DNA of 64,000 bases from a virus (Duplodnaviria; Heunggongvirae; Uroviricota; Caudoviricetes), in the IMG/VR virus record IMGVR_UViG_3300042009_000026, positions 160,001-224,000 of that record; one strand, given 5' to 3'. Shown one piece after another: positions 31,903 to 61,023 of this stretch. Numbering within the stretch: the first letter of the stretch is position 1; each line of letters begins with the position of its first letter. Position numbers and translations under genes: made by a program. Under the pieces are notes generated by a model. The model saw only the letters and a list, made by a program, of their open reading frames with translations, did no database searches and was not told where the DNA came from.

Positions 31903-34122
31903 ATGAATCTCGATTCACTGTTTAAACATAATGCACAGAAGCAATACACCCGCTTCTCGATGGAAGACTTCCTGGGCGCACTGGAAGCAGAACAGAACTA
32001 CGGCGACAGCGTTCTGGCTAAAGGTAAAGGCCTGGTAGAATTCATCAGTCAAGAAAACTTCGGCGACATCTCTGAAGCTCAACGTGGCACCGCTGGTCAA
32101 ATGTACCAGGACATCGGCGCTACCATGCAGAAGTTCGGTTTCGAACACTTCAAAGATAGCAAAGGCTATATCACCGAAAACCAACAGCGCGCTGCTACAG
32201 TTGCTGCTATTGCTTGCGCTGATCCAGAAGCTTACAAACGTGCCCTGCGTGCCGTTTCTAAAGAAGTAGTTTCCAACGAAGACAACGTTCACAACGTACG
32301 TCACGAATTCGGTGGTCCTGCTGGTACCCTGCAAGTTTTCCAAGACCACCTGGGTCTGGAAAACTACAACGAAAAATCTCAGCGTGACTTCCGCGTCGTA
32401 ACTGTTGGTTACAACCTCGAAGCTTCCCGTCAGGATGAGTTTGCTGAACGTCTGTACCCTACTACCGTTATCAACCCAGTTGAAGGTGGTGTTGTTCAGG
32501 TTCTTCCTTACATCGCTGTAATGAAAGACGTCTATCACGCTGTTAGCGGTGCTAAACTGCTGAACGAAGAAGTCAACATGGTAGAAGCATACCGTGACCC
32601 TTCGATCCTGGATGACAACTGCACTGACCTGATCCCTGCTGTTGATCCAGATGGTACCAACCTGAAGTTCTTCGTTGATCCACTTCTGGTTCCACACCAC
32701 GTTGTTACCAACGAACAGAACATGTCGGTTACCACTGGTCCTCTGAAGCCAAACGTTAAGATCGACCTGATGGGTAACTCTAACGCCAACCTGCTGATCA
32801 ACAAAGGCATGCTGGACGTTTCTGATACCATCGATCCAAGTGGTCGTCTGAAAGCTCTGTACGTCAAGTTCGACGGCAAAGTAGTTCGTTTCGTTGTTGA
32901 CCGTCTGCCTACCGCTGTATTCCAGCCTGGCCTAGTCGGTGACACCCGTATTGCTAAACTGGACTTCATCACTGAAGACCTGGTTGTTGGTGCTGACACC
33001 AAAGCAATCGACGGTTCGGTATCTGCTAACATGCAGGAACTGGTAAACCGTAAGTGGACCGCACGCATCTCCGTTACCTTCACTGGTCACGTATCCACTT
33101 CTCGTGGTGATGCTCGTTACGGCGCTGCTGGTATCGAAATCGACCGTATCGTCGACGAAGACCGCAAGCTGATCTCGATCGAAACTGGCGACGGTGCTGA
33201 TCTGGTTGCAGCTATCGGCGAACTCGAAGTTATCGGTTACGACCTGGACGTTAAGTTCACCAACACCAACCGCCGTCAGCGTGGTCACCTGTTGGCTACT
33301 CGCGCTATCCAGTTCCGTCACCCAATCCCGATGCACGCTCCGGTTACCCTGCCAATGTCCACCATGGATGAGCAAGGCCCAGGCGACGTCGTTAAGGCGC
33401 TGACTGTCAACACCAACATCCGTAACAGCAACAACGCTGTTAAACGTCTGCTGAACTACCTGGCTCAGCTGAAAGAAGTTGTTGGTAATGGTTACGACCG
33501 TCCTAAGTTCGGCGCTGTTGAAGGTGCTCTGAGCATCATGATGCGTCCAACCTACCGTGAAGGTTCGTTGCACCTGCCTGACCACATCGACACCCTGAAA
33601 TCTCAGGATCGCTGGCAGGACGTTTGCAGCACCATCTTGAACTTCGCTAAAGGTATCCTGTTCCCAGCATACCGCGAGTCCAACATCGAAGCTGCTTTCC
33701 GTGTAATCTCGGGCAACCAAGACGAGAAGCCAATGTTCATCTTCGCTACCGACAAAGAAATCGGTAACTACCTGATGACCCAAGGCGACGACCGTACTCT
33801 GGGCGCAATCCTGGAATACGACCTGGTAACTACCAACAACGAACTGTTCGATGGTAAACTGGTAATCGTTCCTACTCGTAAGAACCCAACCGAAAACGAC
33901 ATCCTGTCCTTCGGTCAGTTCTTCTACGTATCGACCGTGATCGCTGACCTGCCTATCACTCGTGGTGGCCAGCAAGTGACTCGTGAGATCGCAGCTGTTC
34001 CGTTCAACCTGCACGTGAACAACATCCCATTCGCAATCAACCTGACCATCACTGGTCTGGAAGAAGTAATGGGCAAATCGCAGTGGAACAAACCACTGAT
34101 CGATGCTATCACTACTCCATGA
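31903..34122 (+). CDS. Major capsid protein precursor (phiKZ gp120-like)
   Basis: 739 aa; strongest codon bias in window; GLE/NYNEKSQRDFRVVTVGYNLEASRQDEFAERLYPT matches the phiKZ MCP maturation region (E153/N154). Confidence 0.92.
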   Translation: MNLDSLFKHNAQKQYTRFSMEDFLGALEAEQNYGDSVLAKGKGLVEFISQENFGDISEAQRGTAGQMYQDIGATMQKFGFEHFKDSKGYITENQQRAATVAAIACADPEAYKRALRAVSKEVVSNEDNVHNVRHEFGGPAGTLQVFQDHLGLENYNEKSQRDFRVVTVGYNLEASRQDEFAERLYPTTVINPVEGGVVQVLPYIAVMKDVYHAVSGAKLLNEEVNMVEAYRDPSILDDNCTDLIPAVDPDGTNLKFFVDPLLVPHHVVTNEQNMSVTTGPLKPNVKIDLMGNSNANLLINKGMLDVSDTIDPSGRLKALYVKFDGKVVRFVVDRLPTAVFQPGLVGDTRIAKLDFITEDLVVGADTKAIDGSVSANMQELVNRKWTARISVTFTGHVSTSRGDARYGAAGIEIDRIVDEDRKLISIETGDGADLVAAIGELEVIGYDLDVKFTNTNRRQRGHLLATRAIQFRHPIPMHAPVTLPMSTMDEQGPGDVVKALTVNTNIRNSNNAVKRLLNYLAQLKEVVGNGYDRPKFGAVEGALSIMMRPTYREGSLHLPDHIDTLKSQDRWQDVCSTILNFAKGILFPAYRESNIEAAFRVISGNQDEKPMFIFATDKEIGNYLMTQGDDRTLGAILEYDLVTTNNELFDGKLVIVPTRKNPTENDILSFGQFFYVSTVIADLPITRGGQQVTREIAAVPFNLHVNNIPFAINLTITGLEEVMGKSQWNKPLIDAITTP

Positions 34123-34206
34123 AGGAATCCGGATAATGTTCGTCTACTAGAAGATGGAACAATCCGGTATCTGGAAGACGGTACTGTCCTACGGTACCAA
34201 GAGTAG
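34123..34206 (+). other. Putative stop-readthrough extension of MCP (27 codons, R-x-L-E-D-G repeats)
   Basis: In frame after TGA: RNPDNVRLLEDGTIRYLEDGTVLRYQE-TAG. It lies upstream of the terminator and matches the C-terminus of the 60484 protein. Confidence 0.65.
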
Positions 34207-34210
34207 CAAA

Positions 34211-34244
34211 CATACTGCCTCTCCTAGTGAGAGGCTTTATGCCG
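34211..34244. terminator. CATA-hairpin-TTTATGCCG element ending the MCP transcript
   Basis: CATACT-GCCTCTC-CTAGT-GAGAGGC-TTTATGCCG. Confidence 0.8.
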
Positions 34245-34270
34245 TGTTGGACTGCAAATAATTTCAAATC

Positions 34271-34278
34271 TATATTAC
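34271..34278 (+). promoter_or_regulatory. Early promoter upstream of the nvRNAP-subunit operon
   Basis: TATATTAC in AT-rich intergenic DNA. Confidence 0.75.
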
Positions 34279-34381
34279 TATCAAGCATATAAACAAGGAG
34301 ATATATTCTCTGCCGTAGTAATTCCGTAGTAGTTATTACTACAGAGAATACGAACCCTTTTAAATCTTGAGATCCCAATCA

Positions 34382-34978
34382 ATGAATTACTTTGACCGCT
34401 TTGAGAAAGTGCTCAACCAAAAGTTCAATGGTGACTTAGAGGCTACCCTGAACTTCACCCGCTTTGATAACTATCAAGGCAAACCGTTACGCATCCGTGA
34501 AATCGATCGTCGTCCTAAGAAGGAACCTGTTTATGTAACAATCCCTGATGAACCGATAGTTGACATTCCAGTTGTTGAACCAGCAGAGGAAGTTGAATTC
34601 GAAGTAATTGATTTAGAAGCAGAGATGGAAAGAAGGAGAAAAAGTACTGAGACTAATAATCCTGTACAACCTGAACCAGCTGTCGAAGAATCGAAAGCTA
34701 TTCCTCTTTCTTTGACCTTACGGGATACGACTCAGTCGACATCCAGGGGGTCGGTTTTACAAAAGAAGAAGAGTCAAACTACCAAGACCGCGCTCTCGGC
34801 TACCGGTGGTAATCGAGCCCAACGTAGAGCCGCCAAAGCCCTTATCCGCAAAGGTGGTAAAACGTCAAGTTCGAGTACTCGGAAAGACGATGAACGAAAC
34901 AGTGGTGGTTCACAAAAAGCCCACGTACCGAAACGTGTGAGTTTGAGTGAACTGGAATTCGGGTTCAGATTGGAATAG
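34382..34978 (+). CDS. Hypothetical protein with acidic middle and basic disordered C-terminus
   Basis: ATG 34382; NRAQRRAAK in a K/R/S-rich tail. Confidence 0.6.
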   Translation: MNYFDRFEKVLNQKFNGDLEATLNFTRFDNYQGKPLRIREIDRRPKKEPVYVTIPDEPIVDIPVVEPAEEVEFEVIDLEAEMERRRKSTETNNPVQPEPAVEESKAIPLSLTLRDTTQSTSRGSVLQKKKSQTTKTALSATGGNRAQRRAAKALIRKGGKTSSSSTRKDDERNSGGSQKAHVPKRVSLSELEFGFRLE

Positions 34979-59785: not shown

Positions 59786-60020
59786 GTGTTACGTTTCTCC
59801 GCCTCCTACTGATGAAGACATCCTTAACGCTCCACAGCGTTATCGTGTAGCCGGTAAGATGTCGGATTGGGAAGCTCGTTTCCTGTTGATGTCTGATCAC
59901 TGGCTCCTACAAACTGACGCACTTGGCGTGTGTAATAAACAAGTGCGCAAATCACGTGAGTGGGTAAACAAACATCGTGGTTTGGAGAAGCCTAATGAAA
60001 ATCTCGGAAATCCTGAATGA
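59670..60020 (+). CDS. Outer-membrane lipoprotein spanin (o-spanin, Rz1-like)
   Basis: MILVILLVLVSWLTG-C lipobox, Pro-rich; starts inside the i-spanin gene in another frame. Confidence 0.7.
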   Translation: MILVILLVLVSWLTGCASTTAQLPQNVVSAVMPAVLTNECYVSPPPTDEDILNAPQRYRVAGKMSDWEARFLLMSDHWLLQTDALGVCNKQVRKSREWVNKHRGLEKPNENLGNPE

Positions 60021-60483: not shown

Positions 60484-61023
60484 ATGATCACTACAGATCG
60501 TTTCCCGTATGACATGCCTTCCCGCGACGCGCTCGTGGAACAGGTGAATCGTGACTTGCAACGGAACTACAAACCGAACCAAGTTAGTTTTGAAGATATG
60601 TTCTTTGCTCCTCTGCCTGCTATCCCTGGCCGTACGTTTATTGAGATGACTAGTCGCCTTACTGGCCTAAAGGAATTCTTTGTATATCGCCGGTTAGATT
60701 TGGCTAATCCTAAGGCACTGGGCACAAGTACTCGCATTAAAGTGTTGGGACAACCGTCTCCAGCCAGTATCGCAAACGAAATTAATCGCAGCCGTCTGAT
60801 GTCATTCGGCCCTGATGATATTTCATTCTCCACGGTAGTTATCCAACCTCCTGAGAACACATTCGTCTATCGCTTGAAAGCGATGACAGGCAGTTACGCT
60901 TACTTCGGCGAAACAGACATTATCGTTGAAATTATGGAAGCTAACCCGTACGCTCGTTATCTTGAAGACGGCGATGCCCGGTTGATGGAAACCGGCGAAA
61001 TTCGTGAACTCGAACACGCCTGA
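60484..61023 (+). CDS. Virion-type protein (YRRLDL domain) with C-terminal R-x-L-E-D-G repeats
   Basis: RBS GAGG; FVYRRLDL; ends NPYARYLEDGDARLMETGEIRELEHA. Confidence 0.7.
   Translation: MITTDRFPYDMPSRDALVEQVNRDLQRNYKPNQVSFEDMFFAPLPAIPGRTFIEMTSRLTGLKEFFVYRRLDLANPKALGTSTRIKVLGQPSPASIANEINRSRLMSFGPDDISFSTVVIQPPENTFVYRLKAMTGSYAYFGETDIIVEIMEANPYARYLEDGDARLMETGEIRELEHA

Follow-up and report, generated by a model that had tools for sequence, protein, structure and literature searches.

The locus considered here raises a simple question: does the gene for the major capsid protein (MCP) of a phiKZ-like jumbo phage end at its stop codon, or is the reading frame behind that stop translated as well? 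The gene lies in a window of 64,000 nucleotides (positions 160,001 to 224,000 of the IMG/VR virus record IMGVR_UViG_3300042009_000026, Caudoviricetes), by which we mean the whole stretch of DNA that was analyzed. Its coding sequence occupies positions 31903 to 34119 on the plus strand (739 codons) according to the open reading frame (ORF) list and to Pfam, and it belongs to the phiKZ gp120 family: the ORF at 31903 to 34122 (739 amino acids) matched PF25620, PhiKZ_MCP, with an E value of 6.8e-225. An earlier reading of this DNA, referred to below as the original prediction, had proposed that the TGA stop of the gene, at 34120 to 34122 on the plus strand, is occasionally read through into a short in-frame extension. 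Comparison with related phages and profile searches led us to regard this proposal as likely, and UGA readthrough would thereby yield a minor capsid isoform that ends in a portable tag.

The layout of the gene end was as originally described. The MCP frame closes with ACT CCA TGA, the next base being an A at 34123, and then stays open for 27 codons (34123 to 34203) up to a TAG at 34204 to 34206, which ends the extended frame on the same strand. No in-frame ATG, GTG, or TTG occurs within these 27 codons, and a G+C-rich terminator hairpin (34217 to 34235) stands 3' of the TAG. The codon alignment divides the extension into a variable linker of six codons, rich in Gly, Pro, and Asn (34123 to 34140, plus strand), and a tag module (34141 to 34203, plus strand), delimited by the alignment and by a profile match, in which three R-x-L-E(-D-G) units follow each other with a period of 8 to 9 residues. 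The tandem 8-residue repeat that had first drawn attention to the extension comprises two full units and a third, partial R-x-L-E-D-G unit. Rare codons are frequent, as had been claimed: 12 of the 27 codons have a share below 10% in the MCP's own synonymous usage, compared with 33 of 739 (4.5%) in the MCP itself, and such poor codon usage right after the TGA is what is expected for a rarely translated tail. The statement that most other major structural genes here end in TAA proved roughly right, with TAA used 34 times, TGA 13 times, and TAG 8 times among the 55 long ORFs of the window. At the same time, an open frame of at least 27 codons follows the stop in 31% of these 55 ORFs, a chance rate at which the open frame of a single sequence is not significant alone; its significance must come from relatives.

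We assembled 26 tail-bearing loci of the Pseudomonas phiKZ clade from the window, GenBank phages, IMG/VR, metagenomes, and assemblies, and grouped them into 14 clusters defined by at least 10% nucleotide divergence in the last 600 nucleotides of the MCP gene. Represented among these loci are Phikzvirus, phiPA3/PA1C, Pawinskivirus, Tepukevirus, Phabio, 201phi2-1, and Noxifer, and the window phage itself is Tepukevirus-like. All 26 shared one layout, namely, a TGA, an in-frame tail of 26 to 30 codons with a like pattern of residues, a stop, and a hairpin. The tail was still present in Noxifer, whose MCP is 64% identical in its C-terminal half, and homology to other phages detected by blastn, phiKZ included (71% identity), reached about 160 nucleotides past the MCP stop. 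The test that the original prediction had named, conservation of the TGA and of the LEDG frame with synonymous variation, was positive in 26 of 26 loci and 14 lineages.

Several features of the alignment pointed to the protein as the conserved product. Differences in tail length were multiples of three in every case, and the linker, which occurs in variants of the N-P-G and G-K-G types, shifted in length by whole codons only. At invariant Arg positions the codons CGT, CGA, CGC, CGG, AGG, and AGA were all used, and invariant Gly positions drew on all four Gly codons. Across 22 sequences, the tail region held no stop in frame 0 and 12 to 33 stops in the other five frames, and the ratio of nonsynonymous to synonymous substitution rates (dN/dS) was lowest in frame 0 (0.47 versus 0.65 to 1.16 in the other frames). 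RNAalifold, run on 21 tails, found no convincing shared structure (consensus of only -4.4 kcal/mol). The whole-codon indels, the synonymous variation, the openness of frame 0, and the lack of a shared RNA structure together indicate that the region past the stop is constrained as protein in the MCP frame.

A conserved stretch at the 3' end of a gene might instead act as an untranslated RNA or DNA element, such as a structure upstream of the terminator, a stabilizer of the mRNA, or a small RNA made from the 3' untranslated region, with its protein look being incidental. The region does sit between a highly expressed gene and its terminator, and the window sequence folds better than its shuffles (z = -3.8). 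Moreover, a CCGTC/GACGG pairing is kept in 21 sequences, and PMC9163698 mentions a suggestion that phiKZ makes processed small RNAs. We nevertheless consider this explanation very unlikely, given that the weak consensus structure consists of five pairs built of conserved codons and that an RNA element leaves unexplained both the open frame with whole-codon indels in 26 of 26 loci and the switching of Arg between CGN and AGR codons.

Other reading frames were also evaluated at this position. The ORF on the minus strand at 34112 to 34378 and the remaining frames were not conserved and were stop-rich in relatives, and they were rejected as candidates. A frameshift of the T7 10B type was rejected as well, the extension being in frame 0 and frames +1 and +2 holding 33 and 26 stops, respectively, in 22 sequences. 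In the GenBank record of HPP-Temi, a hypothetical protein of 47 amino acids is annotated across the MCP stop in a different frame (1554 to 1697 of its locus extract). Relatives do not conserve that frame, so this gene is probably a spurious call that arose because the tail region had no annotation.

The stop codon itself proved as constant as the peptide behind it. The first stop was TGA in 26 of 26 tail-bearing loci and in 14 of 14 clusters, compared with a TGA share of 24% among the stops of the window (13 of the 55 long ORFs). The base after this TGA was A in 18 loci, G in 7, C in 1, and T in none. In ordinary window genes, T follows TGA more often than any other base does (6 of 13), and work in E. 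coli has identified T after the stop as the strongest termination context. The second stop, behind the tail, varied even inside close clusters (TAA, 17; TGA, 6; TAG, 3). Two lineages had no tail. In the first, the C-terminal half of the MCP is 98% identical to that of the window, about 60 nucleotides of tail are deleted, and the gene ends in TAA; this was seen in two independent samples (1601 to 1660 and 2074 to 2135 of their locus extracts). In the second, the MCP is 73% identical, the stop is again TAA, and the spacer behind it is unrelated. TGA thus tracks the presence of the tail and TAA its absence, and the appearance of TAA once the tail is lost is a further point that an RNA element leaves unexplained. 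At the level of sequence comparison, these results show selection on the frame, the TGA, and the peptide, and they indicate that the TGA stop is part of the device.

The tail also has a counterpart elsewhere in the genome. The gene at 60484 to 61023 of the window (plus strand) encodes a 179-amino-acid homologue of phiKZ gp143 (phrog_2935, E value = 2e-33), with a putative DUF7941-type domain at the N-terminus and a C-terminal tag (60943 to 61020). The three-unit motif lies in the last 26 residues of this protein; its orthologues in phiKZ, 201phi2-1, and Noxifer have it as well, and 44 database homologues conserve the tail. We searched a profile made of gp143-family C-termini only against the 8,767 six-frame stop-to-stop segments of the 317-kb genome. 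The profile recovered its own gene (E value = 1.6e-13) and then the post-stop segment of the MCP (E value = 1.2e-8, 33 bits), and the segment ranked third had an E value of 3.9. In the reverse search, from the MCP tail, the gp143 homologue came first after self (E value = 0.02). The tag module of the MCP ends at the last residue before the TAG at 34204. The searches show the MCP tail to be homologous, as judged from the profiles, to the real C-terminus of another virion protein, and an RNA element would leave unexplained why such a protein-tail match (E value = 1.2e-8) is found at about 52% nucleotide identity.

Two clearly homologous modules in one genome could also mean that the MCP tail arose as a copy of the gp143 gene's 3' end, a copy that is decaying or hitch-hiking, is itself unused, and keeps its coding look through gene conversion. 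The phiKZ paralogues, at 65% nucleotide identity, would be in keeping with this. However, the nucleotide identity of the two tails is 0.52 in the genome studied here and 0.52 to 0.56 with 201phi2-1 counted, which is the chance level for the motif, whereas the MCP tails, compared as orthologues between the window phage, phiKZ, and 201phi2-1, share 0.63 to 0.73 of their nucleotides, with 0.67 to 0.73 for the orthologous tails in phiKZ and 201phi2-1. Because the paralogous tails are less alike than the orthologous ones, gene conversion does not explain the coding look. Each copy furthermore keeps its own signature ending across genomes, and conversion would neither hold the MCP frame nor keep the TGA. 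We find it scarcely credible that the tail is such a relic.

The module is found well beyond these two genes. When the last 37 residues of gp143 homologues, comprising the final strand and the tag, were made into a profile, it retrieved 240 proteins at an E value of ≤0.001 among 1.84 billion representatives, and in these the module is often located right at the C-terminus. The carriers include tail proteins (phrog_1101), minor tail proteins (phrog_837), a virion structural protein (phrog_15220), and dozens of proteins of 43 to 65 amino acids. The tag is the extreme C-terminus in two of the PHROG-matched tail, minor tail, and virion structural proteins, and the proteins of 43 to 65 amino acids, which are metagenomic, terminate exactly in it. 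In some proteins, R-L-L-E-D-G repeat arrays reach 18 units. No Pfam family covers the R-x-L-E-D-G tag, and our literature searches found no description of it. Judging by its carriers, the R-x-L-E-D-G module is a portable tag of phage virion proteins.

As for the rest of the gp143 homologue, its match to the Pfam family DUF7941 was below the cutoff (18 bits versus 27). An AF2 model of the protein had a pLDDT of 84, with the tail at about 75 and forming periodic beta-bridges, and in the PDB the model was matched best by a chain of 150 residues from the structure of the phiKZ outer peripheral baseplate (9xqd, E value = 1.2e-6, TM = 0.72). We took this chain to be the N-terminal domain of gp127, following the description in a preprint (10.64898/2026.04.21.720040). 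The same preprint lists phiKZ gp143 as a DUF7941 protein, and the N-terminal domain of the homologue, as modeled, appears to be of the DUF7941 type. The proposal for DUF7941 members is that they polymerize head-to-tail into filaments, each protomer docking on the next through the segment that follows its N-terminal domain (10.64898/2026.04.21.720040). In phiKZ, gp143 is reported to be a virion protein and a non-essential regulator of the holin gp142 (PMC12894885).

Next, we looked into more distant chimalliviruses. The MCP gene ends in TAA, without a tail, in LucasX, DT01, RAY, SEGD1, RSL2, Eowyn, and a Vibrio phage. The two exceptions, Goslar and Ralstonia phage RP31, both have TGA-A. In Goslar, 28 in-frame codons past the TGA-A (MCP end at 1577 to 1666 of the locus extract) match the C-terminus of Goslar gp23, with 10 of 19 residues identical (E value = 0.005 genome-wide and 4e-6 pairwise). 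Goslar gp23 (1027 to 1569 of the locus extract) is a 180-amino-acid DUF7941 protein whose gene adjoins the endolysin gene, which is the position of gp143 in phiKZ. It is also an abundant virion protein. In RP31, 15 in-frame codons past the TGA-A (MCP end at 1619 to 1669 of the locus extract) match the end of the phage's own 184-amino-acid DUF7941-like protein (1417 to 1968 of the locus extract, minus strand), and 2 of 5000 shuffles reach the score of this match. The three tail motifs, those of the Pseudomonas clade, of Goslar, and of RP31, are mutually unrelated, and each MCP tail tracks the short DUF7941 tail of its own phage. This covariation across three lineages argues that the MCP tail and the short DUF7941 tail would serve one partner within each phage. 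An RNA element, on the other hand, leaves unexplained how a like layout could be built of unrelated sequences in Goslar and RP31. Goslar MCP tagged with GFP at its C-terminus keeps a capsid-like localization (10.64898/2026.04.21.720040).

How, then, would the tail be translated? Under readthrough, most ribosomes would halt at the UGA at 34120 to 34122 and produce the normal 739-residue capsid protein. A minority would decode the UGA as an amino acid, with Trp from near-cognate tRNA-Trp as the likeliest residue, and would translate 27 further codons to the UAG at 34204, adding the flexible linker and a tag of about 21 residues with three R-x-L-E-D-G units. UGA is the leakiest bacterial stop, and tRNA-Trp reads it at low frequency. 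We infer that readthrough is the simplest route to the tail because the extension has no start codon, begins like a linker, and is always preceded by TGA.

The same codons could in principle be translated as an independent micropeptide, by re-initiation after the TGA or from a non-canonical start, in which case no extended capsid protein would be made. Shine-Dalgarno-like purine-rich stretches (AAGGA, GGAAAGGG) do occur past the TGA in most loci of the Pseudomonas clade, and the tag is present on many free metagenomic proteins of 43 to 65 amino acids. Yet neither an ATG, GTG, or TTG nor any other conserved in-frame start was found in the first eight codons of any locus, and Noxifer is without the purine-rich stretch. 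The first six residues vary in the manner of a Gly/Pro linker, in keeping with a fused tail, and re-initiation would not need a strict TGA, the leakiest stop. A separate micropeptide is in our judgment very improbable.

We give hardly any credence to decoding of the UGA as selenocysteine by way of a SECIS-like downstream hairpin. Although a hairpin begins a few bases past the UGA in the window, there was no Rfam SECIS match at E values up to 10, the hairpin near the UGA is not a conserved structure, and the sequence after the UGA is wholly different between clades while the peptide is kept. Even taken together, the RNA element, the micropeptide, the conversion relic, and selenocysteine decoding make up an unlikely set of explanations. 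A suppressor tRNA encoded by the phage was rejected too, as no tRNA with a UCA anticodon is present in the genome.

With respect to the tRNA that would read the UGA, one of the 10 tRNAs of the phage is a tRNA-Trp(CCA), encoded outside the window (160001 to 224000) at record positions 59937 to 60012 on the minus strand. Its D-stem (GUUC/GAAC) has U:A at positions 11 and 24. Counterparts with U:A at 11/24 are conserved in D6 and Psa21 (1494 to 1569 and 1501 to 1576 of the locus extracts, respectively), and no DNA match to the phage tRNA-Trp gene was obtained from phiKZ, 201phi2-1, or Noxifer. We take U:A at 11/24 to be the configuration of the Hirsh UGA-suppressor tRNA-Trp of E. coli, which makes it a lead and not a test. 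A tRNA-Cys(GCA), which is near-cognate to UGA too, is encoded close to the tRNA-Trp gene.

Several points weigh against a tailed capsid subunit made by readthrough. The first is quantity. Reporters in P. aeruginosa and P. putida showed UGA readthrough of just 0.04% and 0.08%, respectively (PMC9481147), and the phiKZ capsid has 1,620 MCP copies (PMC11297242). The expected number of tailed subunits per head is thus about 1 at 0.04 to 0.08% readthrough and about 16 at 1%, meaning that a 1,620-subunit capsid would hold about one extended subunit unless the context or the infection raises readthrough. Second, the searches for a stimulatory RNA element came up empty: RNAalifold gave an unconvincing consensus, and an Rfam search of positions 33900 to 34450 at E values up to 10 returned only a chance-level snoRNA match on the opposite strand. 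Third, the tail dN/dS of 0.47 is only moderate, because about half of the tail positions are free. Fourth, the original prediction had counted homologues with the tail fused to the MCP without a stop as possible support, and a search of 5.8 billion proteins yielded no relative whose TGA is replaced by a sense codon; the matches all end at the same position. Fifth, the tail is probably dispensable, since two natural metagenomic lineages lack it. Finally, we found no report of an extended MCP or of its readthrough in the literature, including the phiKZ cryo-electron microscopy (cryo-EM) papers, which model gp120 to its annotated end.

If made by readthrough, where on the particle would the tag be? 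In the phiKZ capsid, the MCP's C-terminal arms (residues 728 to 747, which is the annotated end) build a six-helix bundle at the hexamer center, and those of pentamers extend to the outer decoration protein gp244 (PMC11297242). Because the arms meet there and touch gp244 at the pentamers, the tag is probably exposed at the centers of capsomers. A few capsid subunits per particle would carry its binding specificity, and a tail at such low occupancy would average out in cryo-EM. As to function, we favor a docking or display tag, which would let a few capsid subunits engage the partner of the gp143 tail, and this partner may be the DUF7941 N-terminal domain itself. A foldon-like trimerization tag was considered too, given an Asp-Gly spacing similar to that of T4 fibritin, but we make no claim for it. 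A more far-reaching version holds that the tail imitates the short DUF7941 tail (phiKZ gp143, Goslar gp23), recruits that protein or its filaments onto the head, anchors the proposed cloud of DUF7941 fibers, and couples the amount of assembled capsid to the timing of lysis, throughout the Chimalliviridae and with tag and receptor coevolving in each lineage. The coupling to lysis is included because gp143 also tunes the holin. We put this version forward tentatively, as a possibility that we rather doubt.

The proposed device resembles several known systems in part. The comparison with Qbeta coat/A1, made in the original prediction, stood as an analogy of mechanism and nothing beyond it. In Qbeta (Qubevirus), a leaky UGA ends the coat gene, and minority readthrough gives a C-terminally extended minor subunit in the shell. 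However, Qbeta is a small single-stranded RNA phage of E. coli whose A1 extension, of about 200 residues, is needed for infectivity, whereas the window phage is a 317-kb double-stranded DNA jumbo phage of Pseudomonas whose predicted 27-residue tail copies the end of another virion protein and is probably dispensable. The CP-RTD of luteoviruses and poleroviruses is likewise made by readthrough of a capsid gene and places a surface-exposed extension with an extra binding function on a few subunits, but these are RNA viruses of eukaryotic plants in which the stop is UAG and stimulatory RNA elements are known; the window phage showed no stimulatory element. T7 and T3 10B and the Listeria phages PSA and A118 are similar in that recoding at the end of the MCP gene of a tailed double-stranded DNA phage gives a minor, longer capsid protein; they differ in using -1/+1 frameshifts at slippery sites, while the extension in the window is in the zero frame behind a stop. 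The tails of phiKZ gp143 and Goslar gp23 resemble the MCP tail through homology (E value = 1.2e-8) and covariation in three distant lineages, but the gp143 tail is made constitutively on gp143, and that of the MCP stands behind a stop.

Minor capsid proteins made by readthrough are textbook knowledge for RNA phages and plant viruses. For tailed double-stranded DNA phages, we know only of frameshifting as a source of minor capsid forms, and our literature searches found no description of stop-codon readthrough of a capsid gene in these phages. The new aspect would be a Qbeta A1- or CP-RTD-like device that works in a tailed double-stranded DNA jumbo phage and whose tail is taken from another virion protein. 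If this is true, phiKZ, the model nucleus-forming jumbo phage, and its relatives have a hidden, unannotated form of a structural protein, one that would be invisible to symmetry-averaged cryo-EM and to proteomics with standard databases. It would also define a portable C-terminal tag, connect the capsid with both the DUF7941 filament proteins and gp143, the regulator of lysis, and represent a natural design for low-copy display on jumbo-phage capsids.

Downstream of the extended frame, the terminator-type hairpin is followed by a conserved TTTATG in the alignment (34217 to 34241 together, plus strand). The position of the hairpin and the GCTTTATG after it are conserved as far as phiKZ, with GCTTTATG being invariant (region 34236 to 34278 of the window). 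The element TCTATATTAC, at 34269 to 34278 on the plus strand, looks like the promoter-like start of the next transcription unit and is context only, outside the recoding. Five phages, phiKZ among them, share it without change; the window has a single copy, which lies 30 nucleotides beyond GCTTTATG. The two motifs resemble the late (TATG) and early (TATATTAC) promoter motifs of phiKZ. A terminator and two promoter-like motifs appear to be packed into 60 nucleotides. Further downstream, in one sample of the first tail-less lineage, the next gene differs from that of the window and gives a weak GIY-YIG (homing-endonuclease-type) Pfam match; the other sample keeps the next gene of the window.

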